Shown here piece after piece: positions 20,601-56,060 of a stretch of 64,000 bases of DNA. The notes below the pieces were generated by a model, which did no database searches, was not told the origin of the DNA, and saw only the letters and a program-made list of their open reading frames with translations. Position numbers and translations under genes: made by a program. Origin of the DNA: Veleropilina oligotropha (lineage: Eukaryota); assembly GCA_048128005.1 (NCBI GenBank), contig JBEUKZ010000007.1, positions 124,001 to 188,000 of the forward strand, read 5' to 3'. Position 1 is the stretch's first letter. Every line of letters begins with the position of its first letter.

Positions 20601-23600
20601 TTTACAAAAGTAACATTCAAATCAATTATATTTATAACTTTAACCCCTCAATTCATCAAAAACTAAGCTTTGAGAGCCGTCATCTTGGATTGACCTACTT
20701 TTATCACAAAGCTACTAATTTGACATGGCCATCACATTTTTTTGTTATCTAGAGGTACAAATGAGTGGTAAAATCACAATGACGTTTTGCCACTCTGAAT
20801 GGTAGCAGTTCGTCCCCCAGCAATACGGCCTTTCATATCGATACTATTTCGTATATTGTTTCTCTCCACATCCCTCTCACCGTCGAGTAATCCTGAATGA
20901 CTTTGGTGTGGGCTCGGGCGTTTCTGTCGTCATGGGTATCCCTGACGACTACCTGTCGAGCCGCGTCGCTATAGATCTTGCCAGTTTCCTGGAAGAGAAA
21001 ACATATAATGTATGAAATTATAAATATATACAGCAATCTTATTTCAAAATCAACTGAAGTATCTATCTCGCTTTGAAATATATAGAAGATATAACACACA
21101 CATCAAAATGCAAAATCCGCTTCTCACCTGTGACTGGGAATAGAAGATAACAACTCTTGACCTCGCGAGATGTCTCAAATGACGTGGGATGTTAACCAAC
21201 TCAGTTCTGATGAAAATTCTGGGATCGAGTTGAATGCCCACTGCGAGTTGCATTGATTTTGCTTCGCAACATGGAAATTACACCTTTTGGGTATTCTTAA
21301 GTTATTACATAAACGGGGAGATTAAATGCAAATGTGTAATATTCCGTTATAAATGCGCATTGGTCATAGTGTGCTGCATCTCTAAGCAAGCCGCATTATT
21401 AGATAACCTACATGCTCTTGTACGTCTGTCCGACTATCCGTGTTGAAACTGTCCCCTAGTGCTGACAAGGTTGCAGACCACTGCGCAGGGAGGCAACACA
21501 CCGGTGGCGGCGGCTCGCAAACGGCTGGTACCGTGAACACGCTAGTGTCGTTGATGCCTGCCTTGATGTTAATGTAGTTTCTCTCAGAGGTAAAGTCAAC
21601 TGGAATGAAATATGGTTTACCATAAGAAGAGTTTACTGTGATTTAATTACTCCTCGCTAATCAGATTAAATTTGTATTTTTTGCGTGAGCGGAATAAACC
21701 GATCTAATAGTAATCATACAATGAAGTCTAAATTTCTAAATTGCAACGATAATGCAATAATAACCTACAGTCAATCAGTGACCTCTTCATCGAATGTTCA
21801 TATATAGTCATAAACGCTCCTGTGTGGCTGCAAAATACGCATCGCCCTGTAGTCCTTGCATACAAATACGTAGATTTATACAGTAACAATTTCATGATAT
21901 ATGATAGGTTTATTACTAATATATTGGAGTAACTTTTCTATTATTCTGATAATGAACAATAATTATCAAATCTTTTTATCAAATTATCAAATTCTTCAAG
22001 ATCTGACGTTTAATTAATTACTCATACAGAGAGTCCCTGTCTAGAATTTCCGTAATATTCCGACAATCAATTGGTGACGTCAGATGTGACGTCACGTACG
22101 TCTTTATGACGTTAATCCGCCGTTCTGATTGGATGACGTTAGTTACGTAAATATCCTTATCTTGCTTATGACGTTAATCCGCCGTTCTGATTGGATGACG
22201 TTGGTTACGTAAATACCCTTATACTCCTCCTGTTTGACGTCATTTTCACTCATGAGTAGTACAAATAACTTATTACCCGTCTCCATGGAGATCGGGGAGG
22301 CTCGGCTCATTCCGTAAACTCGAATAATGTTGTCAGCTTCGTTAGATGTAAACATATAGGTAAATTGTTGCACTCGTAAAATGTGACAAACAACAATGTT
22401 AGGTTAATTAATAGATAGGGAAAATATAATTCAAATTAAAAGCAAGATAAATTCGTTGTCGAATCTTCGTCTTGGTAGTATACGGTACGTTGAACACCTA
22501 TTGACGTTGAACCCCTCTGCTATCGCCTCGGGGTTAAACGTCAAACGGTGTACAATGCACCGTATACTACTGCGACGTCGCTCGACAACTTATATTATCT
22601 TACTTTAGCTCTTAATACTGCAATCTGATTGGTTAACGTTCCTTCGACAATTACCGTATTCCCCACCCAGGCGGGGTATATGAATTATTAATACCTTACG
22701 TAGTTGTGTGTACTATTGTGATTTGGAGCGCCCTCGAAGACAAGGGAGATAATTTTGAACATGTCGTCTGCCAAAACATCAATACAAATGTTAAGTCATG
22801 GAATCGTACATCGTTTCGAAAATTATGCATCAACTTCATTTTATAGTCGTAACGGTTTACACTTTTGACATTTTCATGTAAAATAAAATATTCAATTATC
22901 CTTATTTAGTTAATTTTGGTGTTTACTTCAACTTCCTATTATTCTCCTGCGGAGAGACGTCATTTATCTACCGTACTGTACGGAGTATTCTTAATTTCTC
23001 TGTCTGGAGAGTGACTGTTGCTAGGCATTATTATTACATTATAATGGGCGCGTCGGAATATCTTCAAAATATATATAATGTATATTGGTATGCATGCATT
23101 TGCCACAAACTTAGTTTGTGTGTTTTTCAATAATCATGCCAATCCTGCTAAATATCACAGTTATAACGAAAGAAATATTTTTATATTGAACATGAAGTTT
23201 TACACATGATCTTCGGCAGAGCTGAAATCATAATTTTAGGAACGCGGTTTTTTAGTAACACCAATAGAATATTTAAAATGGGTTCTTTCACGGAAAAACG
23301 GAGTTGGAATAGAAAATTGTTCAAAAGGTATGATTTTATTTTATTGAAGTAAGATAAATTCGTTGTCGGCATAGCCCTCGTGAAATATGGGTCTATGTAC
23401 CGTTTGTGAGAATTTATTAACCTCGACTTCGTCTCGCTTAATAAATTCTCACAAACAGGTACATAGACCCATATTCCCATCGGGCAATGCCGACAACTTA
23501 TATTATTACCACTTTGATATATTTCCTCGTTTTTATGTCTTGACCTTTTTGTAAAAATGGACAAGACATTATCAAATGGTCCGTGTGTATATACTTATAT

Positions 23601-26600
23601 ACTTATATATATATATATATATATATCCGTCGATTTATTTGAAAACTACCCGCTCAATTTTCACCAAATTTTGGTACACACATTCCCAAGAGTATTTGTA
23701 GGTCGTGTATATAACTTTCGCGACACAATTTTGCAAAAATATGCATTTATTGAGCACTTTTATCCATATTTGTATATAACGGATGTCTAATATTGCAAGC
23801 AAATGGCAATGACGTCATTACGACGTCGCCTTAGATTAATCGTCATTTGGTGACGTCACAATCGACGGGGTAGTAAATTAAGCCATGAAGTACTTGCACT
23901 TAGCCATTGTATTAACTGTTATGAAAATTTGAGGGAAATAAAGAAAGGTCAAGACATATTTCGAACGCGTCGTTCTTGTTCATTGGTCAATGAGTAATGC
24001 ATAAATCTCAGTGTATGCTAGGTAACGTTAATTTGCCGGGTATAACAATTTGGTATACCCCGGCAAAATGCGGTCACTGGTTTTGCCGTGGTATATCAAT
24101 TCTCAAACGTTGTTGACAAATAATCAAGATGGCGGACTTCACTCGCTTCAGATTATATTTACCTAATTAAACATTCACTAGTCAAATGTAACGAAATGCC
24201 ACTACACCAAATAGCAATATTTTTCTCAGTAGTTATCATAAATAAACAAGAACGACGCATTCGGAATATGTATTGACTTTTCTTTATATCCGTCAAATTT
24301 TCAGAACAGTTATAACGTTACAATGTCAAAGTGTACTTACCACCCCGTTGATTGTGACGTCACCCAATGACGATTAATCAAAAGCGTCATCGTAATGACG
24401 TCATTGCTATTTACATTAATTTGCCGAAGTATAACAGTTTGGTATACCCCGCCAAAATGCGGTAACGTGATTTTGACGTGGTATACCAAAATGTTTGTTT
24501 AAATGATGAACGTTATAGTGATATCGACAGTATTTATTTAGGCCTAAATATGAACAAAACTGTGAATAAGAAGGGGTAATAAATTCGCCATACTGGCTAT
24601 TGACGGCTGCGCCGAAGGAAATACGAAATTTTGGAGGGTGGTAAAATCCCGTATACCCCGTCAAGAGCCAGTGTAACTAATATTATCTTGCTTATGACGT
24701 TAATCCACCGTTTTGATTGGATGACGTTAGTTACGTAAATACCCTTACCCCTCTTGTTATAGACGTCATTTTCAAAAACGAGTAGTACAAATAACTTATT
24801 ACCCGTCTCCATGGAGATCGGGGAGGCTCGGCTCATTCCGTAAACTCGAATAACGTTGTCAGCTTCGTTAGATGTAAACATATATGCAAATGTCTGCGCT
24901 CGTAAAATGTGACAAAGAACAATGTTAGGTTAATTAATAGATAGGGAAATTATAATTCAAATTAAAAGCAAGATAAATTCGTTGTCGAATCTTCGTATTG
25001 GTAGTATATGATACGTTGTACACCTATTGACGTTGAACCCCTCGGCGATAAATCAAACGGTGTACAATGCATACCGTATACTACCGCGACGTCGCTCGAC
25101 CACTTATAGTATTCCTTATGACCTATTATCACACAAAGGGCTATTATGGTATTGAAATGGCTCAAAACAGTAACCTCTATCAAATATCAAAACGTTACAA
25201 AAACGTTCTTCAGGAGTTGACGTATTCATCAAATACCACTTTTCGTCGCTATGAAATTGCTGATGATACATCAAAGCAACATTTTTAAGGAATATGTTTT
25301 ATCTTTGCAGATAACAGATAATTGGAAATTGAAATATAGAAATAGTAACATTAGTTAGGCCTACGTCCATCTAGGGATCCTCGTATTGTCATAGACATCG
25401 GGTAACACTCGTCCGGTGTGACTAGGGCCGAAACAGTGAAGTTGTACGCTTGGAAGGAGAAGGAATTCACCAAAATGGGATGAGTATCAGGACCAAAGTA
25501 GGATGTTCCATGAAAGGTAGCATTTACTTCCTCTGAAAATATAAGTAAATAAAATGATTAATGAATGAACTAGATTAAAATCGAGCGGACGTGCAGGATG
25601 GATGGATGGATATACATTCTATTATTTTAAGCAGTAGAATAAGCCGACGGCTGGTCTCGAACCCGGGCCCTCCTGGCTGTTTCGTTTAAGTGTCCAATGC
25701 GTTATCCACTCACCAGGAGAAGCAGTTGATGGATGGATGGATGGATGGATGAATGAAAGCAGGTTATAATATATCCAACTTAGGTCTGGTCAAGAGAACA
25801 CCGGAAATTCTCACCCAGTTGATCGGATGATGTTAACTGTTCGCCATTTTAGGACATATCACAACTTACCATCAAAACACTGAACATGCGGAAACGTAAG
25901 TTCACTTCGGGTACACGATTTATCGTCAAGGTTCATTACGTATTGGTAACCCTGAAAATGTTGATTAAATATCAAATATGCAACATTTGAGAGCTTTTCA
26001 CCATTTCTTTTACCCCTTTTGTTGCCCTTTCATGGTAAATAACAGTGTCATATATTAGAATGCTGTTATGCTCATATGTTAATCAAAAATTTAATTGATT
26101 GAATAAATAGTCTCATTCCAATCGCGTTTACACTAATGTTGTCATTGATATACGTTCATAAGATATTTCCTTATAAGTAAATAGTTGTCTTTATATGAAT
26201 AATTAATGTACATAATAATGCTATATTCGTATACCATATATACATCAGATGTATATTATATATATATATATTATTTATTTAAAACTGATTTTAAGGATAA
26301 ACATATCATTTTCACTCACCGTATTATAATTGAAAATGGTATGTGTAGAATTCGTATTTACACCGTCTCCAAAACGAGTAACTGCGAGAAATTCATTTTT
26401 ATCATCGTAAAAGAACTTATATACAAGCTAGAAAGAAAACACGGTTATTATTGATATCATAAATTCGTTGGCAAAAGTACTATAACAGACAAAATTTACC
26501 CCAAGTCAAAGTAACTTGTAGAGCGCCAACGATCATTTACATTTTCATACGGGGTCAGGCAGGATGAGAATCGCACACTCCATCATATGAATTCGGGTTA

Positions 26601-26934
26601 ATTGATCTTTGAGTGCTCCACTGCATATTAGTTAAAGTATTTAACAGACGTTATATGTGACTTGGGTTGTACATCCGCAAACGAGTAAAATTTTAATGAG
26701 AACTTTGAGAAATATACCATGTTGTCTGAAACACCACCAAATATGTGTACAGGCATAATCTTTCTGAAAGCATCGATGTGTACATACCCTGTGCTGGTCA
26801 TATTTGCCTGTGGCTACATTATGATTGGCAAGATTTTCAACTACATTTGCTTCCCATTGCTTCGGAAAACAGCATCCCTTCGGATCGGCGGCCGATGCAA
26901 CGACCGAAAATAACAGCACAAGAAACCACTTCAT
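11637..26934 (-). CDS. epdr: EPDR gene A: secreted ependymin-related protein with two tandem ependymin domains (~395 aa, 10 coding exons)
   Basis: Hand-spliced exons, all GT/AG and in frame: 26934-26788 (MKWFLVLLFSVVASAADPKGCCFPKQW..., signal peptide), 26427-26320 (LVYKFFYDDKNEF...FNYNT), 25951-25870 (GYQYVMNLDDKSCTR...QCFD), 25532-25365 (NATFHGTSYFG...TPDECYPMS), 21599-21412 (YINIKAGINDTSVFTVPAVC-EPPPP-VCCLPAQW...), 20988-20881 (ETGKIYSDAAR...QDYST), 13414-13339 (GLEYTIKNGICR...YCIP), 13091-12930 (SANFTGSAHLG...TRDGCYPVT), 12138-12050 (WFEDFKPFVDEDSVFAIPVFCTS), 11696-11637 (PGFITQF...TMA*, tentative last exon). The CCxPxQW...YD...CIP...CYP...FxxPxxC pattern is the ependymin signature. Symbol is family-level only. 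Confidence 0.88.
12507..12688. repeat. 60-bp tandem repeat, 3 copies (intron of gene A)
   Basis: atattgactatcgcattgtctggccactggaaatatcttctttccactctgttgctatg repeated at a 60-nt period. Confidence 0.95.
14015..14243 (-). mobile_element. SINE family A copy (diverged)
   Basis: ggaaaaccaccctcctctgctagttaatgacaaactg...ggttcgaacgcaac...agagtcgg. Confidence 0.65.
14440..15010 (-). mobile_element. Crypton-like (tyrosine-recombinase transposon) remnant: N-terminal ORF plus 69-bp perfect inverted repeat
   Basis: ORF 15004-14696 (MANRFASST...LGHFYIDARKSNGEHYKSISLEQIRYSLNRYL) resembles the N-terminus of Crypton/DUF3504 (KCTD1/QRICH1/ZMYM-type) proteins; catalytic domain absent; arms 14440-14508 and 14522-14590. 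Confidence 0.7.
16170..16400. repeat. ~117-bp tandem duplication
   Basis: aataataaagcttatcaaaacaca...gtgtatctcca twice. Confidence 0.9.
16800..18685. mobile_element. Non-autonomous TIR element inserted in the Academ-like ORF
   Basis: Left gacgatttcaccaggcaagtccaagttagac vs right reverse complement gccgatttcaccatccaagtccaatctagac; transposase reading resumes on either side. Confidence 0.6.
17765..18179. mobile_element. MITE with TIR CAGGCGCGGATCCAGG and 5-bp TSD GATCC (hAT-related)
   Basis: Perfect 16-bp TIRs; GATCC at 17760-17764 and 18180-18184. Confidence 0.85.
20320..20492 (-). mobile_element. SINE family B copy
   Basis: Minus-strand head gtcctcgatagcccaactggttagagcg...gggttcaagccc (A- and B-box) fused to a non-tRNA body. 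Confidence 0.7.
22160..25110. repeat. ~430-bp dispersed direct duplication (22160-22595 / 24685-25110) flanking other repeat debris in intron 4 of gene A
   Basis: Near-identical tatcttgcttatgacgttaatcc...cgacgtcgctcgac blocks. Confidence 0.9.
23383..23478. repeat. Long hairpin with CTCG-acttcgt-CTCG apex
   Basis: atatgggtctatgtaccgtttgtgagaatttattaa / ttaataaattctcacaaacaggtacatagacccatat. Confidence 0.85.
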
Positions 26935-27795: not shown

Positions 27796-27833
27796 GATAA
27801 GGCTGGAAATGGCGCCATCTGGTGGATTCTCAC
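27796..27833 (+). promoter_or_regulatory. Putative proximal promoter module (GATA site + CSL/Su(H)-like site) of gene B
   Basis: GATAAGGCTGGA 97 nt upstream of ATG and TTCTCAC; similar arrangement in genes C and D. Confidence 0.45.
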
Positions 27834-27892
27834 CTTCACTTCATTGTCTGATATTGCTAGTCATTCCGTCATCGTGCGAACAAACAGTGCAC

Positions 27893-30800
27893 ATGTCGTA
27901 CATTCTGGTAATATTACTTGTTGTGCCGTTTGCGGCCGCGCAAACGAATGCAACAAAGAAGCCCTGCTGCTACCCGGAGCGATTTCAAGCGTTCATTGGC
28001 GACGTGGGCATTGAGACCGATGAGTCACACGACAGTGAAGACGAATTCCGGGTAGGTCTATGTCCATATTAGTAGCATTTTGATTTGGTTTGGACCAATA
28101 CTTAATGTCCTGTTTATTAACAACCTTCAGGTTCAAACCATAGTATATTATCGCAAGGGAGAGACCATGTCGCCGTTGGAAACCCATCCTCTCCTGCCAG
28201 TTATGAATAACTGACTGATAAAAAAACAATTCAATTCCACTGACCCAGCCAACATTCGAGCGCACTTCTGTTAGACAGAGCAGTCAACACAGTGGTACCT
28301 GCAGTCACACCGTTAAGCACAACTATCTTCAAAAATATAGTTGTCAACACATTAATTTAAAACGTATATGAAAAAGTAATCATCGATCTAATGGCGCCCG
28401 TCCTATATTATGTTACAATCGACGAGCACCTAGTGGGGGTTATTTGTGCCCCTCCTATATTATGTCACAATAGACGAGCACCTAGTGGGGTCATTTGTGT
28501 CCCTCCTATATTATGTCACAATAGACAAGCACCTAGTGGGGGTCATTTGTGTCCCTCCTATATTATGTCACAATAGACAAGCACCTAGTGGGGGTCATTT
28601 GTGTCCCTCCTATAATATGTCACAATAGACGAGCACCTATTGGGGCAATTTCCGCGCTGTGGGGGTCATTTGTTTCAGGTTTGGTGTGGATCGATGCTTA
28701 TTGTCCCATTGACCACTGGTCAGGGTCACGCCATTATATGTCCATATATTCACTAGAGTTAACCAGTAATAACTCAAATAAATTCCATGATAAATAAATC
28801 CCTGATGTTGATCACCGCGCGGTGGGTCGCATGACGCTGCTTTGCCCGTTTGGAGTGAAACGCCATAGTCCGCCAATCTCCGATGTTCGTTCAAAACACA
28901 CAGGTATTAGCCCTTCACCCATTAAACAATTTTCAGTTAATGCAGTTATGGACAATTATGAGTATTACCTCCGCAACGTAGGATTCGAACCCACTCATGT
29001 GAAACAGCTAACCCAATCATCATCATCATTCTTTATTTCGGCTCATGCGAAGTTATTCACATTTCGCCTCCAAAATATATACAAAACATAACATAACAGT
29101 TGGTTGTTCATACAAAACTACATAAATTCAACATATGATGCATTTCATTATAAGGAGTGAAACAGTTAACATACAATGTGTCGCCAATACTATAAAATGT
29201 TAAAATGTTACACTTTAAATTAAGACTTCTTGCCATAGTTATATTTAATTATAACTAGTCTGTGTCCAGGCAATCATATCGATTGTTTGATATAAAGAGT
29301 ATATTAATTTTTTATAAATTCCCGTCACTTCTTAACGACGTGAATGTAAGTTGCAGAGGATTGCTAACAATATGACTCTTTGTTAATTTCTGTTTTGTTT
29401 ATTAAAGTAGAAACCTATATGGTTCAATGCCTGAATAAAATGAATTTATTTGAACACAGAGTAAGGGTATATCCTTTTTATGATACGCGTGGTTTCTGAA
29501 ACATTAAAAACAAAAAGCTCCGAGAACTGAGACCTCCGCCAGAAAACAGTGAGAGTTAAGATGAATCCCCTCTAAAATTTAATCAATTGGTTTCAAACCT
29601 AAGGCCAAAGTGTGACGAACACTTTTCAGCTAAAACAGAAACATCGATCCCGGATATGACGTCATCATGTCCAGATTATCACCAAAAACTAATGGAATGG
29701 TTTTGGATAAGGTACAATTAATCCGTTAACAAAAATACCCAGACGCTAGCGGAAGTGATGCGGAAAGCTATTAGGAGCATGACGGCGGGAACCGGTTGTC
29801 TGTACGGCGAATTTATCGCTATAGCTTCAAAAATAAAATATAACATAACGTCATCACATCTGGCATCAGATCCGGACCATCACCATGATTGGCCCTGTTC
29901 GTGATTGGCACATCATGATTGGCACATCGTGGTAAATGTACAATACGATACGGACCACTCCGGTAGCCGCGTGGTCTCGAGCACCGACTCTGAAATCACT
30001 GGCTTGACTGCTCTGACTAACAGGAGTGCGTTCGAATCTCGGTTGGGGCAATGATTTTATATGTTCAGTTTTCAATCGCAGAGGTCCGTAACTGGTCGGC
30101 AATATGTACATGTTCTAGATGAACCTCAAGGCTATACCAGACGTTAAGCATCGATCCAAACGGAACAGAATATTCAAGAACTTTCAAGAAAGAAAATGCT
30201 GGCCATAAGTCCCTACATCTTGTTATTACATCATTAGTTCGAGAACAATGCAAATTGAACAGAATTATTGGAAAAGAAGAAGATGCAAAGAAATTCAAAC
30301 GGATGTAAATAATTTGGTAAAGTGGTCTCTGAATTCGCAAATAATAAGTGTAAAGGTAATATGTGTGGATTATAGTAAAATATTAATTACGCAATGGATT
30401 CCGAAAGTTTAGAAATAATGAAAAAAACATATGATTTGAGTGTAAGAATAGACAGGTCGTTTAAATCATCAAATCAATGTGCATTGGCAGCTAAAAGGGA
30501 AGTCAAATACCGAGGTCGACATAACACGCCTATATAAGCATAATGATAAACCAGATGTAGAATATGCAGTGCAAGCATCGAGTACTGAAGCAAAGAAGAG
30601 CTACAAAATTGATAGTGGATTGAGGGAAACGTCATATGAGGATATATTTAAAGCACCTGACATCATTCAATGTTCAAAATGCATGCAGGAAAAAACAATG
30701 TTGATAGTAGATACAGTTTTCAGATGAATCAAAGGTAAACCAGGGGACAAGTTGAACAAAAAGAGATCACGACTTGACGTTTGAAAACACTCTTTCTCAA

Positions 30801-33800
30801 AGAGGGTTGTAAATAGAGGGGATCTCACATGAGTGGTCATTTAATATCACATTTATGAAACGAGTTAACTAATTTTCATATTTTCCGAGGTTTCACCGAG
30901 GAAAATATGAAAATTAGTTATAACGAGTTTCATAAATGTGATATTAAATGACCACGATTGTGATATTCTTGTTATCATATATCTGAAAGTTATAAGGAAA
31001 CAAGCTGTATAACGTTGCTTTTAATTTTGTTGACTCCTTCTAACATACCATATTTATGCGGCGTAGTAATATGCAGAAGGTGAAATTTGTATATGTGACA
31101 ATGGCATTGTGTGTGAAAAATAATCCCGTTATTACCCACTCTATAAATTATAAAGAGCAACAAATGTTGTTATGAAAAGAACAAATGTCGCTTTATCAAT
31201 ATTATACTATTCCAACAAGCTCTATTCAAAGAACATGAAATGCGTGTCGCGCGTGACTAATGTATGTCGATTTCACCTTATATCGAATCAGAGGTGAGAG
31301 GTCGGCACAATTTGTCGACGAAGATACGTTTGGTTACATATAAAGCATCAGAACAATAACAAAATGGTCGGCTTTGTATATGTTAACAATTATAAACACG
31401 TTTCCAGAATAATTTTGTAAAAATTCAACGTTAATATGTTAATTTTCATCTAAAATAAGTTCGAATCGAGGCCAATATGGCGGTATAATGCCTGAAATGT
31501 ACACCAATCAGATTGCATAGCAGAAACTAAATTGCAAACTTGGCCTACTACGTTGTATTTTGTATGCTATGACTATCGGAAGTTAAACGATCTTACCTGG
31601 ATGACTGCACTTAGTATTTCAACTAAATATTGGTCGTTAGTTGCGGTATTTTCCCTTGACCGTGGCCATGTTTTTCTGATCGATTAAATCGCATATCGCC
31701 GAAATCGCAGGGTAGAAAAAAGGCCGATACACTGTAAATGGCCTTGTAGGAACCGCTCTGTCATTGGATGTTATTCTGTTTAATTGATAAGCTTTTCCAA
31801 TCAAAATTACAAAAGAGAGTCGATAGTACAATCTTAGGAGTGTAATATCGATTTTATCTTCCTAGAAATATGGTAAAATCGACATCTGTAGAAAAATCAC
31901 ATAAATGAGCAATTTAAGAGGCATAACAGATTACAGATGGGTAAATAATTTTCAACATTATCATATAAACGTTATGTGTGCAAAAGTACATAATCTTTTC
32001 AGGATTTTGGAGTATTAGTGTTTGACTATCCTGGGAGGAGAATATACAGACGTTTTTATGAAAGGAACACCCGCACCCGCGTAACAGAATTCACTGACTA
32101 TATCGCGGTAAGTTTCTATAACCACTTTCTAAATAAGTCATATTTATATATGCATAGATACATCTTCCTTAACTGTAGTTTCCTCTTACGAATACCCTTG
32201 TTTTGACAGTTATATGAATGTCCCAGACGATTATGATATAGACAGTTTAGTTTTAGGACCACATATTTTGACACTTTCAGTCGTATCAAGTCACATTTAC
32301 ATATATTTTTTTATCTTTGCCAGAAAAAAAAATACCGGGTGACGAGTGTGGGTGATTGCAAAGAATGTCAAATCACGACTCTAGAGAACAATGACATCAT
32401 GACTCACTGTATACCGGGTATGTTATAACATGGTGTCGGAGACTCACTGTATACCGGGTATGTTATTACATGGTGTCGGAGACTCACTGTATACCGGGTA
32501 TGTTATAACATGGTGTCGGAGACTCACTGTATACCGGGTATGTTATGACATGGTGTCGGAGACTCACTGTATACCGGGTATGTTATGACATGGAGGGAGA
32601 CTCACTGTATACCGGGTATGTTATGACATGGTGACGGAGATTCACTGTATACCGGGTATGTTATGACATGGTGTCGGAGACTCACTGTATACCGGGTATG
32701 TTATGACATGGAGGGAGACTCACTGTATACCGGGTATGTTATGACATGGTGTCGGAGACTCACTGTATACCGGGTATGTTATGACATGGAGGGAGACTCA
32801 CTGTATGCCGGGTATGTGATGACATGGAGGGAGACTCACTGTATACCGGGTATGTTATAACATGGAGGGAGACTCGCTGTATACCGGGTATGTTATGACA
32901 TGGTGTCGGAGACTCACTGTATATCGGGTATGTTATGACATGGTGTCAGAGACTCACTGTATACCGGGTATGTTATGACATGGAGGGAGACTCGCTGTAT
33001 ACCGGGTATGTTATAACATGGAGGGAGACTCGCTGTATACCGGGTATGTTATGACATGGTGTCGGAGACTCACTGTATATCGGGTATGTTATGACATGGT
33101 GTCGGAGACTCACTGTATACCGGGTATGTTATGACATGGAGGGAGACTCACTGTATACCGGGTATGTTATGACATGGAGGGAGACTCACTGTATACCGGG
33201 TATGTTATGACATGGTGTCGGAGACTCACTGTATACCGGGTATGTTATAACATGGAGGGAGACTCGCTGTATACCGGGTATGTTATGACATGGTGTCGGA
33301 GACTCACTGTATATCGGGTATGTTATGACATGGTGTCGGAGACTCACTGTATACCGGGTATGTTATGACATGGAGGGAGACTCACTGTATACCGGGTATG
33401 TTATGACATGGAGGGAGACTCACTGTATACCGGGTATGTTATGACATGGAGGGAGACTCACTGTATACCGGGTATGTTATGACATGGTGTCGGAGACTCA
33501 CTGTATACCGGGTATGTTATAACATGGAGGGAGACTCACTGTATACCAGGTATGTTATGACATGGAGGGAGACTCACTGTATACCGGGTATGTTATGACA
33601 TGGTGTCGGAGACTCACTGTATACCGGGTATGTTATAACATGGAGGGAGACTCACTGTATACCAGGTATGTTATGACATGGAGGGAGACTCACTGTATAC
33701 CGGGTATGTTATGACATGGTGTCGGAGACTCACTGTATACCGGGTATGTTATAACATGGAGGGAGACTCACTGTATACCGGGTATGTTATAACATGGAGG

Positions 33801-36800
33801 GAGACTCGCTGTATACCGGGTATGTTATGACATGGTGTCGGAGACTCACTGTATACCGGGTATGTTATGACATGGTGTCGGAGACTCACTGTATACCGGG
33901 TATGTTATAACATGGAGGGAGACTCACTGTATACCAGGTATGTTATGACATGGAGGGAGACTCACTGTATACCGGGTATGTTATGACATGGTGTCGGAGA
34001 CTCACTGTATACCGGGTATGTTATAACATGGAGGGAGACTCACTGTATACCGGGTATGTTATAACATGGAGGGAGACTCACTGTATACCGGGTATGTTAT
34101 AACATGGAGGGAGACTCACTGTATACCGGGTATGTTATAACATGGAGGGAGACTCACTGTATACCGGGTATGTTATGACATGGTGTCGGAGACTCACTGT
34201 ATACCGGGTATGTTATAACATGGAGGGAGACTCACTCTATACCAGGTATGTTATGACATGGAGGGAGACTCACTGTAAACCGGGTATGTTGTGACATGGA
34301 GGGAGACTCACTGTATACCGGGTATGTTATGACATGGAGGGAGACTCACTGTATACCGGGTATGTTATGACATGGAGGGAGACTCACTGCATACCAGGTA
34401 TGTTATGACATGGAGGGAGACTCACTGTATGCCGGGTATGTTATGACATGGAGAGAGACCCACTGTATACCGGGTATGTTATGGTGTCAGAGACTCACTC
34501 TATACCGGGTACGTTATGACATGGAGGTAGACTCACTGCATACCAGGTATGTTATGACATGGAGGGAGACTCACTGTATGCCGGGTATGTTATGACATGG
34601 AGAGAGACCCACTGTATACCGGGTATGTTATGGTGTCAGAGACTCACTCTATACCGGGTACGTTATGACATGTAGGGAGACTCACTGTATACCGGGTATG
34701 TTATGACATGGAGGGAGACTCACTGTATACCGGGTATGTTATGACATGGAGGGAGACTCACTGTATACCGGGTATGTTATAACATGTAGGGAGACTCACT
34801 GTATACCGGGTATGTTATGACATGGAGGGAGACTCACTGTATACCGGGTATGTTATGACATGGAGGGAGACTCACTGTATACCGGGTATGTTATGACATG
34901 GAGGGAGACTCACTGTATACCGGGTATGTTATGACATGGAGGGAGACTCACTGTATGCCGGGTATGTGATGACATGGAGGGAGACTCACTGTATGCCGGG
35001 TATGTGATGACATGGAGGGAGACTCACTGTATACCGGGTATGTTATGACATGGAGGGAGACTCACTGTATACCGGGTATGTTATGACATGAAGGGAGACT
35101 CACTGTATACCGGGTATGTTATGACATGGAGTCAGAGACTCACTGTATACCGGGTATGTTATGACATGGAGGGAGACTCACTGTATACCGGGTATGTTAT
35201 GACATGGAGTCGGAGACTCACTGTATACCGGGTATGTTATGACATGGAGGGAGACTCACTGTATACCGGGTATGTTATGACATGGAGTCGGAGACTCACT
35301 GTATATCGGGTATGTTATGAAATGGAGTCTGAGATTATCACCAGGATGGCTCACTGGGTGAAACAAATCGAATTTCAAAATTGAAAAGCTTTTACAGGGA
35401 TGACAGCAGACAGTGGATATCATTATGGTGAAGGCTCAGCCTGTTGAATGCTCGTTAGCACCGAATTAAATCGAATATTTAATAATAAGCTGAAAGATGG
35501 TAATATCTCACTTAAAACGTTTCTACTAAAATATGTGTACTATATAATTATTTATATTTTGCAATAACATTATTTTAGAAAATGCTTACTTAATCCATCC
35601 TGAATTATTCAGAATTTTTGAGCCAACATAAATTTGTCAAATAACCAACAATACATGCGCAGTGTGGGTTCAACATTAATTTCAACCTTTGCTTCAGAGG
35701 ACGCAGCTTTTGTGGGCACAGCGTATTTCGGTTTTGGTCCTCACCGTATGCCCATTGACGAATGGGAATATCATATCGAGAATAACGATAATAATGTCAA
35801 CACAACACTGAAACGCGTGGTGTGGGTAACAGATGGTTGCTACCTCGTCACTATGCAGGTCACCGGAATCAATAAGGGAGGTAAGACTTTTGACGCATGT
35901 TGCTACAGCACAATATACGGTCACGATAACGTAGGTGTCGGATATGTAATAGATAATACACTGCCAGCGCGAACGATATCATCGCTCGAGGCGTTGTGTG
36001 GATATCGTCGAGGGTGTCAGTGTATTATCTATCATACACACCATGAAAATATATTGTAAATTGCTAGCTGTAACCCCTTAAAATGGAATTAGCCACCCAT
36101 ATCAGGCTGATGAGCATATTATAAGAGTCGACGCTTCCGCCGAAATGGGGCTGGCAACTTTTCAAATCCTTTGTAATGGGCCAGCTCCCAATCACGACTT
36201 TAATTAATTCCATTGTTTGGGTTGTTAACTGCAATAATGGAGGCTGGCACTACGGGTCCTATTATCCAGATATCAAGCTCACGGTGTGTATTATTTTTAA
36301 CTCATTTTACCATTAAGGAAATTAACGGTTCGATACGTGACGTCATCACCATCGGTTCGAAACGTGACGTTATTCGATCTTCTTATTTGTTGCCGTCGTC
36401 TTGTTGGAACGATAATAAGGCTGGATAAGAGAGGAGAGATGATTATTTAAGCGTACGATCATGTTATGTAAGTAAGGACGATATGGTTGTTGAAATGTTC
36501 GACTACCTTCATCGTTGTCCTCTATCATTGCAATCACTCGACTGTCGTAATTAACCGTGCGATTCCACTTCTATCAGTTAATATGTTGTAGGTATCACCT
36601 AGATACAAACGCAGAATAGAGATTATACACAAATAAAAATTATGTAATCCGTACCATGCGATGTCTTCTTAATATGTCTAGTGTATTATTATTCATAATG
36701 TCTAGTGTAAGCTGACACACATATTCCGCGACGTCACCCATTGTTGCTTAGTTACGCATTTTCTCTGACGTCACAATTTTCAAAACAACACGTCATTCTT

Positions 36801-39800
36801 ATAGCAAAAGATAAATGCATAGACGGTGGGAAAGGGGTTAAGATCAATTTGTCGCGTTATCAATGTTATTGTACTTTGATAATTTGACGTTTAAAATCGG
36901 CCGTTGTCCAGTAATTACGTTGTTTTGCATATCTCGATGGTGCGAGATTATGGTACTCAAGATCAACAAGATCGAGTGGTGAACACAAAACATTCGAAAC
37001 ATGGCTGACTCGAGTTTGCGCAGTGGTCAATTCGTGACCATCCGGTTCAAGTTGCAAGGTATGCACAGGTATGTGTAGATATTGTGGTCATGTCCCAAAT
37101 CTATAGGACGATCTTCGTTCGCGCTTTGCGCGAACTGCGTTCGTTATTATAATATGTTGTAGGTAGCACCTAGATACGAACGCAGAATAGAGATTATATA
37201 CAAATAAAAATTACGAAATCCGTACCCTGCGATGTTTTCTTAATTTTGTTATGCGTCTTTTATTGATAACGTCTAGTGTAAGCCGACACCCATTCCGCGA
37301 CGTCACTGATTGTTGCTACGCACATTCTCTGACGTCACTTGTTAAAAACTACACCCATTCCGCGACGTCACACATTGTTGCTACGCACATTCTCTGACGT
37401 CATTGTTCAACACTTCACGCCATTCTTATGGCAAAATATATGCATAGACGAAGGTAAAGGGGTTTATATCAAATTGTCGCGTTATTAATATAATTGTACA
37501 AGGATAATTTGAAGTTTAAAATCGGCCGTTGTCCAGTAATTACGTTGTTTTGCATATCTCGATGGTGCGAGATTTTGGTACTCCAAGAAATTAAGATCAA
37601 CAAAATCGAGCGATGAACACAAAACGTTCGAAACATGGCTGAATCGAGTTTGCGCAGTGGTCAATTCGTGACCATCCGGTTCAAGTTGCAAGGTATGCGT
37701 AGATATTGTGGTCATGTCCCTAATCTATAGGACGATCTTCGTTCGTTATAACAGTTATTACATACATGCAACAGTATCAGAATCTTTCTAGTATATAAAT
37801 AACTTATTTAGAACGGTGTCATTGAGAATTTAATGATTTTGGTAATGGCCTTTTTCAGATAGCAATATGAATGTGATCTTTCAATTTGTCATAGGGTTTT
37901 GTGTTCAAACAATATGTGTGTTTGTCTCAGTAATCTCACATAAAGTTATAAGTGCATGCACTATTAATATACAGCTTGGTTGATATTAAATATCTTCTAA
38001 TAATAATTTACTGAATCATAGGGGCGTCTTCAGAATCTTAACATATTTTAATATAAGAAACATCACCAAACCATAACTGAACAGTCACCAAATGAAACTG
38101 TTGTCTCCGTTTTGTCCTTGGAATACTTCATGCACTTGGCACACAAAATTCGTGCTAAACCATCAGTCGTAATCGTTAAAAACTCTCGTCTGACGAGTGC
38201 AATCTTATCCATGACAATATGTTTAACCTGATCTTAATATTACACCACCGTTATTAGCGTGCCTCCTGGTTCGTGGAGTGGAGATTGGGCGTCGCACAAG
38301 ACGTTTTGCAGAAAGAGCAGCAATCATTCTTTTAACTGTGCTGTTGGACACCCTGATCTTGATCTGACTTTGGTGTTTGCTTACAATGAATCTGCCATCT
38401 CCGATTTAATGGTGCTTTTTGTTTCAGCCTTGATATTACCTGTCGCAGCATGCGTGTTCATCAAACGAGTGACTTCCGTACGATTGTTTTCAATGGGTCC
38501 CGATTGTTTTGCATGATGGAGGAGGAGGAATGATGCTTAATGTCCTGTATATTTACAACATCGAGGATCAAGGCAGGACATGTCCGTGTTATCGCGGGAG
38601 GAAACCCCGGTCGCCCGGGTAAACCCGCCCTCTTCGGCCAGTCAATGACAACTGTGATTCATAACTTGAACCAATTTCAATGCCTCAGTCAGGTAGTGAA
38701 CTCACTACTGTTCGCCTTAGCGGAATAAAGCCAGTGAATTTAGAGTGGACACTCTACCCACTGCGCTGCCGAAGCGCCGTTTTGCATGATGGACCATCAC
38801 CTTTGAATGTCAGTGAGACTTGGTCTCGCCATTGTTTAACGTCTGCCTTCTGAAAACATTGTTATGCTTCACAATAATTTTTCCTCTCTCGCATTGAGTG
38901 ATCACTTACGTGGTACATATGCCACGATTTCCCTACATACAGCAATATATTATTTACAATATGTTGCATGTTTAGTATTTATTTAAATATGATTGTGGTG
39001 GTGCTTAAATTTTGAGCTGGTGCTGCTATATAATATAAAAATTCGATATTTATCACATTTTTATATGTATTCAGTGACAGAGGAACAGGCTCTATGGATG
39101 TACAACAATAAACCCATTCTGAATCCAGAGTTACTGGCTATACCAGACGAATGTATGGACACATCAAAGGTATGCTACACAAATGATGAACATTCAAAAA
39201 AAGAGCATGGTGGGCTTGCAAAAATCATTGTCTGCAACCGATGAACAATTACGTACCTTCATCGTCCACCAACCCGATCAAAACTTTCGCATATAATATT
39301 ATGATATCTGTATTTAATTGATGATTCGGTTGGACGCATTATGTTTCTGTAATGCTGATAATAATTTTGACAGGGATTTAATAAGCATTGAATTAAAAGC
39401 TTAGTTCGAGCAAATAGACTTTTTCCCGTACATGCGATCTTGTTTTTTAAAGAAACCTAACCACAATACACTTTTTGTTTATAGCATAAAAAGTTACGAA
39501 TTTACAATACAAAACTTTCGTCAGAAATTTGCTAACATTTAAATAAATCGCTAATGAAGATTTGAAAATAATTAAAAGCGGTCCAAAAGGGGTCCGCTTT
39601 TAATTACCTGTCAGCGAATGACATTTCCAATTGGCCTATTTAGAGCAAGTTAGCAAAGTTGCGCATGTTTCTGCTCGTCAAGTAACTTAGCTTTCAATTT
39701 GAAAAAAATATATTGCCCAGTTACAATGATAATTTCGATAAAAATATATCACTTGATGATATCTTCGCGAAAATTGTACAAATCCGATTCATGTGATACG

Positions 39801-40875
39801 TTAGGGTCTGTTCAGTCATGCTACACATTCACAAATCTGTGGTGAATGAGCTTTCTAGCAGACCATTTGGAAGCATGTATTGCTCTTACGACGTTTGACC
39901 GTACCAGTTCGTTCGAATCTCCGTTACCACGTACAGTTGTCCGTATCCGGCCGGAGAGGGAGTGTTTCCTTCCGCGATAATATGAACATGTCATGGTTTG
40001 AACCAGAAGGTTGTAAATATACAGGGTATTAAGCATCAATCCCGTCCAATCTTACGGTGTAGCGGATAAATTGACCTGTAGCAGCGATCAGTAGCATTGA
40101 CATTTGCTTTTACATAAGATGGATTTCAATACCATCCAGTCTGATTAGGCATCAGAAATATTTATGTGAAACGGCGGTTATTGATAGAGTTGACCCATGA
40201 TGGTATAATGCAGAGACCTAATGAGACCACCGTGTGTCGTCAACCAATCAGAAATTGCTTGCGATATGGCAAATTATGCCTATTATATGTTGTCGAGTGA
40301 CGTCGCGGTAAACACGGTGCACTGAATACTGCATGATGTTGAACCATGAGGCGCTAGCCGAGTGGTTTAACATTATAAGGTATTCAAGGCACCATGTTTA
40401 CCAAGACGTATCTCGACAACGTATTTATCTTGTTTTTGCGATGCTAACCTTACTAGCAAACTCCTGGCTTGGTTCATAACACTGTTGTTATTTATGATCA
40501 TAACTGTGATGTATAGGCATTGAAAATGGCAATCTTCATATTTGACTAGCAAACGACAGCTTCAGTAACGCCTACTCAGCCCATATTGACAGTTTGTCCA
40601 CCGAGGAACTACATTCATTCAATTTAATAGTTCAATATAATCAATTTTATGAGACTAGTTCATTCTTTTGTAATGATTTATGTCAGTTATATCACTTTCG
40701 ATATTTGTTGTTAATCTGTTGAATTAACCGATTAGACGACAAGACTGCTGTTGTTGTTGGGGGGGGGGGGGGGGGGTGATGACATATTTTCTCTATCTTG
40801 ACATGTTTTCATTTATTTTTACAGCAAAGGACCAGACGATGCGTTGTGACACCTCACATTGCAAATATTGGTTGA
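27893..40875 (+). CDS. epdr: EPDR gene B: secreted ependymin-related protein (228 aa, 6 coding exons)
   Basis: Exons 27893-28051 (MSYILVILLVVPFAAAQTNATKKPCCYPERFQAF...), 32003-32107 (DFGVLVFDYPGRRIY...), 32324-32417 (KKKYRVTSVGDCKEC...THCIP), 35698-35880 (DAAFVGTAYFG...TDGCYLV...), 39075-39169 (EEQALWMYNNKPILNPELLAIPDEC...), 40825-40875 (QRTRRCVVTPHIANIG*). Canonical splice sites, 687 nt open frame, AATAAA at 40924-40929. Confidence 0.92.
28400..28675. repeat. ~47-bp minisatellite, ~5-6 copies
   Basis: cctcctatattatgtcacaatagac(g/a)agcacctagtgggggtcatttgtgtc. Confidence 0.92.
29955..30160 (+). mobile_element. SINE family A copy
   Basis: gcgttcgaatctcggttgggg...gtccgtaactggtcgg...gttaagcatcgatcc. 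Confidence 0.75.
30400..30815 (+). mobile_element. Degraded CR1 LINE 3' fragment
   Basis: Similar to the CR1 at 55260-55990 (LYKH...EYAVQA...RLDV*KHSFSKRVV); cut by the hairpin at 30821. Confidence 0.65.
30821..30966. repeat. Long hairpin with paired CGAG/CGAG mismatches
   Basis: Near-perfect arms except CGAG at 30861/30924 and 30886/30897. Confidence 0.9.
32401..35334 (+). repeat. 38/40-bp tandem satellite (~75 copies) derived from the gene B exon 3 end and splice donor
   Basis: Unit GACTCACTGTATACCGG|GTATGTTATRACATGG(AG/TGTC)GGA; the first copy overlaps coding THCIP and the donor at 32418. Confidence 0.97.
36580..37750. repeat. ~570-600 bp tandem duplication (two copies) of a non-coding repeat
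   Basis: aatatgttgtaggta.cacctagatac at 36581 and 37151; both end ...ctataggacgatcttcgttcg. Confidence 0.9.
38530..38779 (-). mobile_element. SINE family A copy (young subfamily, very similar to 58828-59028)
   Basis: Reverse complement matches 58828-59028 over ~200 bp with few differences. Confidence 0.85.
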
Positions 40876-42498: not shown

Positions 42499-45400
42499 AT
42501 GTTATATGTTACTGTGATACTCCTGTCTGTGACGCTTGCAAACGGACAGGACTCGAATCAGACCAAAACTCCATGCTGCTATCCAGAGCAGTGGCAGGCG
42601 TTCATGGGAGACATCGGGTTGGATGACGGGCTCACCACGGCAAACTTCGACCTCTTTGCGGTAGGTAATATCAGGCGTTTGATCCAAGACGAGAATTAAT
42701 GTCAATAAATATATAGTCTGAATGGCGTACACGTAGTGTATTATGTGTATTTCGTGTCGAAATAATAAGATACGGTAAATTTCAGTGGATTACTTGGTAA
42801 TACCGAGGTTTGGTACTCTTTGTTGCATATGGATTCACACATGAATGATATGTACGTCATATCATGTACGATAAAGATAAAGTATATCGGACTAAATGGC
42901 TTCCACCTGAGCCATAATATGTATTTGGCCGATCACAACTGTGGTATGACTGCTACAATATGCACCTGGCGGAAATTGTTAGCAAAATGTTATTAAAGTA
43001 TTCTTAGTCAATTGACCTTGTACTAAAAAATTAGTTACACTTCGAATTACGAGCAAATTTTGCCCTAACCACTACTGAAATCATCCAATCAAATGTCATA
43101 AGAGAAATACGTTACGGTATTGCACTATAATATGGGAAACTGAGCTTGATTAGTGCTATGTGATGTAATATTGGAAAATTCATATTATAATGCGAGAAAG
43201 CTCCATAATATAATAATATTCAGTGTAATCCACCAGACTCCGCAGATTACAGACTACCGATTTGAACCAACATTGTTTAATTTATATAATGTTACTAACA
43301 TCACTTTGACAATTACCATGTTAGCATAAATTCCAGGATCAAGGGCTAATCGTGTATGATTATCCGGCTCGTAAGCTGTACAGGAGGACTTGGGAGATTA
43401 TATCGGACACTCATGTTACAGAGTTTAGCGACTTTAACACGGTGAGTCTGTTCGTTATCAACAGTTAGCAATTTTTGCTTATTTTAAATAAATATATCTT
43501 TATCTAACGATCGATGAATTAACAACTTTATGTAGTGTAATTTACATCTCAATATTAACAAGATCACTCCAACACTGTCAGCAAAAGAGGACACATAATC
43601 ACAAACCCCAGGTTCGGCGACGACATCGACGGATTGGTAGGAAGTGAACAGGAACTCGCCGACTTGGTGAACCACCTGGACGAAACACCTTTCCGGTATT
43701 GAATGAACCTCAGTGCTGAAAACACGAAAGCTGGTTTAAATAAGGCTGAACCAATCACAACAAAGTTCACAGTAAATGGAAAAATGGAAAAGAACCTGTG
43801 GGACAATTGAAATACATTGTAGTCATCATCACCTAAGAAGGCTCAAATACCTCGCATGAGCAAAAGCAAAGGTAAAACTCAAGATCATATGAAGAGGCAA
43901 CAACAAAGCTATCAGATCTAACGTAAAGCGCATGCATGCAATGATCCTTTCGATAATCTTGCAGTTGTGTGAGTAATGGACATAAACTGTACATCTACAA
44001 ATTCGGATCCAAGGTGTACAAATGAGATGCCTCGGAATACTTTCTTACACCATATTACCAACGATGAAATCCGCAGTAACAACATCAAACGTGCGCGTTA
44101 CAATGAACAATCTTCTGACCACAGTGAAAAAGAGAAAACTAGGATTGTATGGGAACATAACAAGATCAAATGGGCTCTCAAAGACCATCGTAAAAGGAAG
44201 ATTGGGGCATACAGACGAAGAAATGGATAGACAACACATCTGAATTGACCAAAAATCTTTCTGACATCTCGGCAGTTACCCACAACCGCCACAAGCGGAA
44301 GCAGTTGGTGAAGCGTTCGTCAGTACAGAGTTACGGGATCAGTTAGTAGTAAGTACGTCTCTCAAAATAAGGTCTCGACATATTAATCTTTCCAAGAATA
44401 TACATATAATAAACAACACATTCAAAACTCGAATATGACTTCAATATCAGTGTGTATATTACCAATAACTTGTGTCTGATATCACGTAATCTGGAAGGTG
44501 ATGTTAGATAATCGTGCTGCTTTTATTTATAGCAAAAGAAATACACTCTGACGACTATACAGGGGTGTACGGAATGCATCGTTACGAATACGGATGGGCC
44601 CCTGAATCATTGCATCTCAGGTAGGTGCTCCAATATTTAGGTCGATAGTGATAGATTGATTCTTAAAGACCTGTATATTTACAACCATCAAGTTCAAGTC
44701 AGGATATATCCATATTATCGCGGAAGGAAAGCCACGTCGCCCGGGGGAACCCGCTCTCTCCGGCCAGTTACGGACAACAGCGATTGCTAACTGAACAAAG
44801 AATGTTAATGCCTCAGTCGAGATTCGAACTCACTCCTGTTAGCTAGCGCAATGGAGACAGTGGTTTCAGTGTCGGCATTCGATAATACACGGCTACCGGG
44901 GCGACCTCCAATACTTAGGGTTTATGAAGGATATTCACTTGACCTAAAGTTAATAAAGGTATGCCGTAAATGATTAATATTTGCATTTACCAATGATTGC
45001 ATCTCATTTTTAATCTCCATCCTGACACTGATCAGACTGAAGAGTGCTTATCTTAGGTTATTTGACAAAAACCTTCGTGATATTTGACTGTAACCGACTT
45101 TTCTGATTTCTTCAAAAGATACATGACGTATAAAGAATGTAGTGTTGCTGTAGCTGCATCATTGTTTTAAATGTGTATTAAAAGATATACTTATTGCATT
45201 TCCGCGTATTCAATTTTATAAAAGGTGACATTAGAAAACCAATGACAAATTGTGGCATCATTTACCAATGTTCACTTAGATGAGAGACGAAACAAACTTT
45301 TGTTAACAAAAGGCACATCATAATTTTTTCTATTATTCTTCTGTTTTTGTGTCATTTTAGTCCATATTTCCTCAAAATCAAATGCGGATCACGTCTTTAC

Positions 45401-46561
45401 ATTTCAACTCATCGTCATTTAACGGTCATTATTTTGTTCGTTTAATCTTTCAGATGATGCGATTTATCGAGGAGAGGGTTACTTTGGCTATGGGCCAAAC
45501 CGTCTCAACATTGACGAATGGGAACTCCCGGACAAGGACAACAGCGACAACATCGTGACCTTCTGGGTTACTCAAGATGGCTGCTACCCAGTCACGAATA
45601 CGATAAAGAGTACAGAGAATGGAGGTGACCTGGCGGTGGTCATTTTTTTCTTTACAATGTTATAATTTGTGAGGTAAAGATGACCGATTGGATTTAATAA
45701 TACAATGTGGGTTATTAGAACGACGATTTGAATTTCTGATGCATTATTGGTTTTCCGTTTAGCCATCAACGTGTTGGAAGTACCTTGACGGGCCTTTTAT
45801 CTTAAAAGTCTTTGTTTTTATTATCAAATATGAGTTTTACGTTTTGATTTCGAAGTAGCATTATGTTATAATGCTTATGAAGACCATGCAGCTGTTAGCT
45901 TGACCACATTTTTTTTCAGTGCAAGAAGAACGTGCTCTGTGGCTCTACAATGTGAAGCCTATTTTGAACCCGGAGATGTTGGTTATTCCAGAACAGTGCG
46001 AGGCAACAGCAATGGTATACATTAAAAATAAAAGAGAGATTTTTCTAAATATTATTTAGCATTTCTGACATATTGGTGATGCAATAATTTTGTAATAAGT
46101 GAGTGTCAATTGTTTAGATTGTTGTTTGGACAAGCAATATGTCGCCAATGCGAGTCGACACAACATAACCGTACTGGATATCGAAACTGGTAGATTGTCG
46201 GGAAAACGTTCAGTTAATTGTACTTTATTGTATGTCGTGGATGCAAATCTCGAGACCGTTGTGGTTTAGTAGGACGCTTAAAAGTTATAGATAATATTAT
46301 AATGAATATATTATGTACTAGCAGGCACACCCGTTTACAAACGGGTGACTTCGCTGAAATCCCCCATCCCCCCCCCCTCAATTTCCCCTATTTTATATCA
46401 TGAATAAAAATATTTCACCGTAGTTATGCCATATGTAATTTGTTGCTATGCTATATGTAATTTGTTACCAAATATTAATTGAAAATATGTATTTAATTTG
46501 TCTGTTTCAGCAACGGCAAAGGAGATGCAACGTACCGCTACATATTAAGAATATAGGATGA
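42499..46561 (+). CDS. epdr: EPDR gene C: secreted ependymin-related protein (223 aa, 6 coding exons)
   Basis: Exons 42499-42660 (MLYVTVILLSVTLANGQ...PCCYPEQWQAF), 43337-43441 (DQGLIVYDYPARKLY...), 44533-44620 (QKKYTLTTIQGCTEC...NHCIS), 45454-45624 (DAIYRGEGYFG...TQDGCYPVT), 45920-46014 (EERALWLYNVKPILNPEMLVIPEQC), 46511-46561 (QRQRRCNVPLHIKNIG*). 672 nt open frame; AATAAA at 46608-46613; aligns exon by exon with gene B. Confidence 0.92.
43560..44345 (+). mobile_element. Degraded RTE LINE 3' fragment in intron 2 of gene C
   Basis: RFGDDIDGL RT-core remnant; MRCLGILSY...VKKRKLGLYGNITRS..LSKTIVKG. Confidence 0.75.
44655..44905 (-). mobile_element. SINE family A copy
   Basis: ccatattatcgcggaaggaaa...ccagttacggacaac...gagattcgaactc. 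Confidence 0.8.
46317..46346 (-). mobile_element. Helitron-like 3' terminus
   Basis: Minus strand hairpin ACCCGTTT-GT-AAACGGGT followed 8 nt later by CTAG|T. Confidence 0.5.
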
Positions 46562-54205: not shown

Positions 54206-55259
54206 GATCAGAGCAGTTAGTACAGGTGAGCTGGGAGCAGCACTCTTATCTACTCCGTCACAGAGCAGCCTAGACAAGTGGAATATAAAAATGAACATGA
54301 CGTCTATCACAAATATTATATGCTGTTATACGCAATCTGCTATCAGTTCCATTTGTCTTCATATTAAGTGTGCACCAAGGGACCTTACATGCGCAACACA
54401 GCACTAAATGCCTCGCATCGGAAACACAGATAGCAAGAAGCATGTGACGCCAGCCACATAATGAATATGCATATTCCATTCTAAATCTGCATAGGCTTAA
54501 GCCAAAGAGCTAAACAATGACTGCAGGGTGTGAATTGTGTAGGGTTTTTCATAAGCGCAATATTGGCCGGGTCATCTTAACAAGCCACAATGAAATAACA
54601 AGCCACGTTGAATAATTATTTCGCTGTTTTTGTATCGATCGATGCTATTTTCCATTTTAACATCCGTCATAACCTTGCAATCGAGAGAGGAAAGCGCGGG
54701 AAAACCCACTCTGTGATTGTTATTTGAAACAAATTGCCCAGCCGCCGATTCAAACTCAATTAGACGAGTGAATTGGTAGTCACCTTTCTTATACACTACA
54801 ACACACAGTGGCCTATTGCTCTCTGTAATAATCTTGTTACACAATACACACCATGTGATTGGCTATTTGAACAATAGGCTTTTTTGTGTTAAATACCCAT
54901 TGTTCCAAATAACAACATAGATAATAGCTAACTCGGTTAGCTGGCCAGATTAAATTAAGTGATAAAGGATTGGCCAACTTGCCAATGAAAGAGCCTATTT
55001 CTTATAACACCCCATGAGCACGTTATGTTGGGAAATTGGATGTTTTAAGGGGTGACAGCTAGCAACTTATATAGATTACCGCTGTGTGTATAACATATAA
55101 TACAACTGTCATCCCTCGGAGATATTAACATAACAGCTTCGTTCTCGCTCGGCGTGTTATGTGTATATATCGCTCGGGCTGACAGTGTATTATCCATTAC
55201 ATATTCACACTCATTTGGGACTTTGTACTATTTAAATAGATTTAAATAGAATTTGTTTG

Positions 55260-55990: not shown

Positions 55991-56060
55991 AATGTTCGCT
56001 TTAACAATGTTAACGCTGCCTGTCTTATTTTGCATTCTGCAGATAAGAGGCCGACTAATA

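Follow-up and report, generated by a model that had tools for sequence, protein, structure and literature searches.

A 76-unit minisatellite carrying splice donors at the exon 3/intron 3 boundary of a predicted ependymin-related gene in Veleropilina oligotropha

Anatomy and turnover of the donor array

A minisatellite of 76 units straddles the boundary between exon 3 and intron 3 of a Veleropilina oligotropha gene, here called gene B, whose sequence points to an apparently intact ependymin-related gene. Each unit repeats the end of exon 3, its 5′ splice site (donor), and the start of the intron. We consider it probable, mainly by analogy with arrays of the same kind in other genes, that the first donor is the one spliced and that the 75 copies are near-neutral intron DNA. 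The window, i.e., the whole stretch of DNA analysed, comprises 64,000 nt of one haplotype (contig JBEUKZ010000007.1, assembly GCA_048128005.1), and all coordinates are window-based.

Tandem Repeats Finder (TRF) located the array at 32401–35327 (period 38, 75.9 copies, 92% matches). Cutting it at the donor core yielded 76 donor-bearing units on the forward strand (32401–35334), one genuine and 75 copies, each composed of 17 nt of exon 3 end and 18–23 nt of intron start. An earlier, sequence-only reading of this DNA had described an approximately 75-fold repeat built from the final 17 nt of exon 3, its donor, and the beginning of the intron. Both extent and composition are borne out, as unit 1 opens with the 17 nt that close coding exon 3 (32324–32417). 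This unit spans the real exon–intron boundary, as in the boundary-spanning minisatellites of the human F7 type and the amphioxus “mirages”. Unit lengths are 38 bp (n = 49), 40 bp (n = 25, including the open-ended last unit), and 35 bp (n = 2), and the 76 units fall into 25 distinct types.

The splice signal is repeated intact, with GT present in 76/76 units. The genuine donor, CGG/GTATGT (32415–32423, cut at 32417/32418, phase 1), was assigned from the intron position in the paralogs and as the sole choice giving a 228-aa product; its 9-mer recurs identically so that 68 of the 76 units carry it, while CAG/GTATGT is found in six and CGG/GTACGT in two. The six CAG/GTATGT copies (units 30, 33, 40, 48, 52, and 56; 33547–34552) lie 1.1–2.1 kb downstream of the genuine donor and match the consensus at 8/9 positions vs 7/9 for the genuine site. 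The last unit (35293–35334) continues into unique intron and displays a TGA where unit 1 has a TAA; it likely keeps the ancestral intron start.

The unit pattern is that of a real minisatellite undergoing turnover. The order of the units is non-random: 15 repeated trigrams of three different unit types were observed compared to a mean of 1.3 after shuffling, and none of 5000 shuffles reached 15. The higher-order blocks of 38- and 40-bp variants noted in the sequence-only reading are thereby confirmed, with the two 35-bp units in addition. Further, the 40-bp units at the 5′ end of the array have another tail type than those at the 3′ end, and a Mantel test on the array units gave r = 0.08 (71 of 2000 permutations). 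Local homogenisation and distinct ends are signs of turnover shared with the F7-type and mirage class. The consensus exonic 17-mer is kept in 50/76 copies, and variants occur anywhere in the unit, including amino acid-changing ones in the copied exon part.

The array could have arisen in two steps. A tandem duplication of about 40 bp would have rejoined the intron at approximately +23 to the exon at −17, at a microhomology of 2 nt (GA) that is shared at both duplication edges. Slippage or unequal exchange would then have amplified the unit, with variants spreading as local blocks and 40-bp tail types coming to differ by end. Moreover, the 7-mer ATGACAT occurs at 32389–32395, in exon 3 upstream of the repeated part, and at unit positions +8 to +14 in most units, 34 nt apart; this pair may have helped the first misalignment, though the junction itself lies at GA. 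Intron 3 of gene B measures 3280 nt and would have comprised about 388 nt before the array; it spans 833 nt in paralog C and 619 nt in paralog D. The growth from about 388 to 3280 nt appears to have left the protein unchanged. By a rough count, based on an incomplete and partly approximate exon list, the chance that an array covers a donor is about 1.2% per array seed and about 21% for any of the 20 arrays in the window. No other array at an exon edge was found, as none of the 20 arrays tested touches any of 24 exon edges, some of them approximate.

Two other identities of the repeat were rejected. The array is not coding sequence, as each of the three forward frames contains 25–33 stops. Nor is it, within the window, a dispersed repeat that matches the exon by chance: outside the array, the longest matches to the unit in this stretch do not exceed 15 nt, and the six residues encoded at the exon end are those found in paralog D.

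Host gene and its paralogs

Gene B was modelled on the forward strand with six exons: exon 1 with a CC-x-P motif (27893–28051), exon 2 (32003–32107, 105 nt), exon 3 (32324–32417, 94 nt, the last 17 nt of which form the repeated exonic part), exon 4 (35698–35880, 183 nt, phase 1-1), exon 5 (39075–39169, 95 nt), and exon 6 (40825–40875, up to the stop codon). The model has an open frame of 228 aa and GT-AG at all five introns, and the acceptor at 35698 is confirmed; the exons downstream of the array are intact, as had been proposed. An intact host frame is likewise a property of the F7-type and mirage arrays, and here it provides modest evidence that gene B still works. As exon 4 is of phase 1-1, its skipping would stay in frame.

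The assignment to the ependymin-related family comes from full-length comparison. Single exons of gene B alone gave no match to Pfam Ependymin, paralog exons matched at E values of 1.7e-5 to 0.02 (5/12 pieces) as fragments below the cut-off, and word-index protein searches found no relatives. A HMMER scan with a profile of four paralog exons returned 43 proteins, among which P0015 and P0027 match at 16 positions only. All ten relatives scanned pass the Ependymin cut-off. The gene B model aligns end to end with nine of ten relatives, gap-free at the exon 3/4 joint, with E values down to 2e-21 in the 43-protein set; its best relatives share 19–28% identity over the full length. In addition, the 228-aa product has a hydrophobic N-terminus, as judged by eye, and its cysteines align with the six-cysteine pattern of the relatives. 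Ependymin-related proteins (PF00811) are described as secreted, of about 213 aa, with conserved cysteines, and encoded in tandem clusters in several invertebrates (McDougall et al, 2018, PMC6280359). Gene B resembles them in length and is likewise clustered, with three or more family members beside it; it differs from typical members in the missing single-exon Pfam match and the low identity to its relatives.

The cluster comprises at least four ependymin-related genes in tandem, at about 12040–26934 (gene A, reverse strand) and, on the forward strand, at 27893–40875 (gene B), 42499–46561 (paralog C), and 56162 to about 62000 (paralog D). Paralog C has six exons with the same phases as gene B, an intact product of 223 aa, and an array-free exon 3. 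Paralog D (56162–60401 as partly modelled) has an array-free exon 3 with a phase-1 donor at 57979, and this exon ends in the same six residues as exon 3 of gene B. Gene B shares its phase-1 intron after the C-I-P/S motif with C, with D, and with domain 2 of gene A, the three paralogs considered here, and none of these carries an array. The common position of this intron indicates that the donor of unit 1 is the genuine one.

Several further observations were made in the cluster. Gene A apparently encodes two ependymin domains, with an exon at about 21411–21590 that runs from a C-terminal motif into another CC-x-P start. In paralog D, the acceptor and 5′ flank of exon 4 (58580–58600) and the last exons are modelled roughly only. 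The modelled start of gene B is a candidate, as the region before it (27810–27892) offers another ATG in the same frame, followed by hydrophobic residues. In intron 4 of gene B, a degenerate direct duplication of about 550 bp (approximately 36560–37100 and 37150–37750) with a 65-bp tandem repeat inside is visible by eye. The frame of exon 4 continues without a stop through 59 codons of intron 4 (35698–36059), and retention would give a different C-terminus; this open frame is probably due to chance. Exon 4 as the last exon (frame open to 36059) was rejected, as exons 5 and 6 agree with their counterparts in paralog C in length, phase, and sequence. The window also contains broken reverse transcriptase/endonuclease frames and one further fragment (52450–54207, 55317–56000, 60523–61875, and 59255–59563), which we take, from their motifs, to resemble long interspersed nuclear elements (LINEs) and hAT elements, respectively.

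Donor choice and competing explanations

Reading through the first donor gives G-M-L-stop, with the TAA at 32426–32428. Translation confirms that all 75 downstream donors lead to a truncated product of 122 aa, as the sequence-only reading had stated in calling every extra donor poison. The count stands, but the property is trivial, because all 75 truncations are caused by the single TAA in unit 1, 9–11 nt into the intron. In-frame stops lie 11–179 nt into the intron in 10/10 introns of genes B and C, so that a “poison” extension is the default rather than a design; a stop within eight codons also follows 118 of 396 other phase-1 G/GTR sites of the window. From the TGA at the matching place in the last unit, the array stop probably predates the array. 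The stop aside, only 26/75 downstream extensions would be in frame. No less than 307 nt would separate the premature stop from the last junction downstream, which by position places such transcripts with those of alternative splicing coupled to nonsense-mediated decay (NMD). At that distance, the usual junction rule predicts NMD.

Selection on this unproductive choice is not indicated. Variable positions were compared between the nine donor and the 24 other unit positions (33 scored), and the donor bases displayed no significant extra conservation (2/9 vs 13/24 variable, p = 0.13, Fisher test), with 18/33 positions invariant in total. Of the two donor variants, one improves the consensus match (six copies) and the other alters +4 (two copies). 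The array is, moreover, absent from the three paralogs.

Units acting as mini-exons or recursive splice sites were rejected. The AGs of the array have no acceptor-like tract, with 7–10, at times 6, pyrimidines per 20 nt vs 11–16 at ten real acceptors. The CAG/GT copies reach 9–10 pyrimidines and 3–4 T, with an upstream AG within the 20 nt, compared to 11–16 pyrimidines and 6–13 T at real acceptors. RNA structure as the cause of first-donor choice was dropped because the opening energies flip with the settings. The first donor is less open than 70/75 copies at a window of 80, more open than 65/75 at a window of 150, and less open than 74/75 copies in a nascent-RNA model.

We propose that the exon 3 acceptor would pair with the nearest donor, by exon definition and with the 5′-to-3′ priority known from F7, such that exon 3 stays at 94 nt; more distant donors would yield ever longer exons. 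A small leak, chiefly to copies 2–3, would run into the premature stop and be removed by NMD. For human F7 intron 7, which carries a 37-bp variable number tandem repeat (VNTR), the reported results on 50 constructs show that only the most upstream functional donor is used (Borensztajn et al, 2006, PMC1557585). One to 12 units had no effect there, and pseudo-sites with a CV of up to 91 failed to compete, while perfect ones did so partly. The introduction of the same paper cites first-donor use only for LMNB2 and PDGF. The array is aptly called a natural test of donor competition, as in the sequence-only reading, but F7 IVS7, built in the same way, has already been put to this test.

First-donor splicing with near-neutral copies is supported by the intact frame, the canonical sites, the phases shared with paralog C, and the end-to-end alignment with relatives. 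It is further supported by the array-free genes C, D, and A with their common donor position, by variants anywhere in the unit with no significant excess of donor conservation, by early stops being the norm, by the lack of acceptor-like tracts, by the rough count of array seeds, and by the F7, ABCA7, and amphioxus precedents. Several points weigh against it. Use of the first donor is here carried over from other genes, and the F7 tests covered up to 12 units in mammalian cells (PMC1557585). Arrays in 6-16, CBS, and ABCA7 are not always silent: the two nearest pseudo-donors are used constitutively in CBS and in 6-16, the latter with 25 pseudo-sites, as cited in PMC1557585, and long arrays in ABCA7 coincide with expression lower by 33% and with skipping of the next exon raised 3.2-fold (De Roeck et al, 2018, PMC5954066). 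Exon 4 of gene B may be skipped in frame like its ABCA7 counterpart. The donor conservation test leans toward conservation and has little power. Finally, a rough decay model leaves a chance of 8–27% that the frame would be intact even if gene B had been dead since the units began diverging (2.5%).

These points feed into several alternatives. Array length might lower or change the output of gene B as an unselected side effect, through exon 4 skipping, reduced transcription, or substantial leakage to copies 2–3 or to the six CAG/GTATGT copies. We regard this as unlikely, although the ABCA7, 6-16, and CBS effects, the phase of exon 4, and the better consensus match of the six copies speak for it: F7 tolerated additional units and stronger pseudo-sites, the six stronger copies of gene B would require exons of 1.2–2.2 kb, and amphioxus mirages are reported to leave splicing undisturbed (PMC3087553, PMC3902484). 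Highly improbable in our judgement is an adaptive rheostat, in which copy number would be selected to tune gene B dosage via unproductive donors and NMD, or via decoying of U1 as the sequence-only reading had suggested. The unproductive outcome of all 75 downstream choices and the GT kept in every unit fit such a role; however, one ordinary stop accounts for all 75, more than half of the scored positions (18/33) are invariant anyway, and neither the donor comparison nor the array-free paralogs lend it support. In addition, U1 is far too abundant to be titrated by 75 sites on the transcripts of one gene. With growing array length, ABCA7 showed no change in the use of its second donor or in its sensitivity to NMD (PMC5954066). 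The neutral VNTR that the sequence-only reading had kept as a fallback is the better explanation.

That the array crippled splicing and left gene B as a young, undecayed pseudogene buffered by its paralogs is very improbable. A redundant tandem family and the outcome of the decay model would allow it, but the six exons and the ten splice sites are all intact, as is the arrangement of cysteines, and among the precedents examined, as far as these sources describe them, no donor array abolishes correct splicing. An assembly artefact is extremely improbable: the exact copy number comes from the assembly alone, but the 25 unit types in non-random blocks, the end-specific tails, a longest exact internal repeat of 240 bp within the 2.9-kb array, clean and unique flanks, and the absence of any N speak for a genuine array.

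The array is real and ordinary, a likely near-neutral example of a class already described. Greater significance would arise only if its length changed gene output. That the 76-donor ladder sets dose or form of this ependymin paralog in vivo, by downstream leak, also to the six donors that have mutated toward a stronger signal, or by in-frame exon 4 skipping, seems quite unlikely to us; if true, a fast-mutating repeat would tune a single gene in a cluster for secreted proteins, and invertebrates would have their own version of the ABCA7 VNTR, acting through the repeated donors themselves.

Relation to known boundary-spanning arrays

Our literature search turned up no further human boundary-spanning cases; the consulted portion of PMC10078293 contains none, and no genome-wide invertebrate survey of such arrays was relevant among the matches listed. 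In the comparisons below, values for other genes are those given in the cited texts.

Human F7 is close in architecture. In both genes, the first unit lies over the exon/intron boundary, identical donors 37–40 nt apart compete for one acceptor, and the gene is intact. Gene B differs in its 17 exonic nt per unit vs four in F7 and in being an invertebrate gene; donor use was measured in F7, whereas the present array is known from sequence. The array has 76 units compared to 5–9 in F7, 26 donors in 6-16, and 10–20 in others; it is large, though no record next to ABCA7. It adds a large invertebrate example to the class, with 76 donors, 17 exonic bases each, and, as controls within the same cluster, three paralogs that lack an array. 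The first-donor rule of F7, established with up to 12 units in mammalian cells, could through it be extended to 76 units and to an invertebrate, and its six stronger internal donors offer a natural test of distance vs strength.

The VNTR in intron 18 of human ABCA7 has a 25-bp unit and about 12–427 copies. As in gene B, a long array is found at the donor, splicing at the second donor gives a premature stop with NMD, which for gene B is a prediction, and the next exon can be skipped in frame. In contrast to the units described here, the ABCA7 unit begins at GT and includes no exon bases. Retention of one unit in ABCA7 yields a stop and NMD, and second-donor use amounts to 2 ± 1%, independently of length, as is NMD sensitivity (PMC5954066). 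Within what is reported there, one measurement bearing on the idea of poison donors coupled to NMD therefore exists already, and it revealed no scaling with length; the length effect measured in ABCA7 acts via next-exon skipping and lower expression, not via the extra donors.

The amphioxus mirages, described in Adh3, troponin C, the globins BflGb6 and BflGb9, and PGBD5 (PMC3087553, PMC3902484), are likewise invertebrate repeats at exon–intron boundaries, with units of 10–160 bp, and share with the gene B array concerted evolution and divergent end units. They differ in that the globin mirages have few units (up to 6) and that length instability has been shown for mirages.

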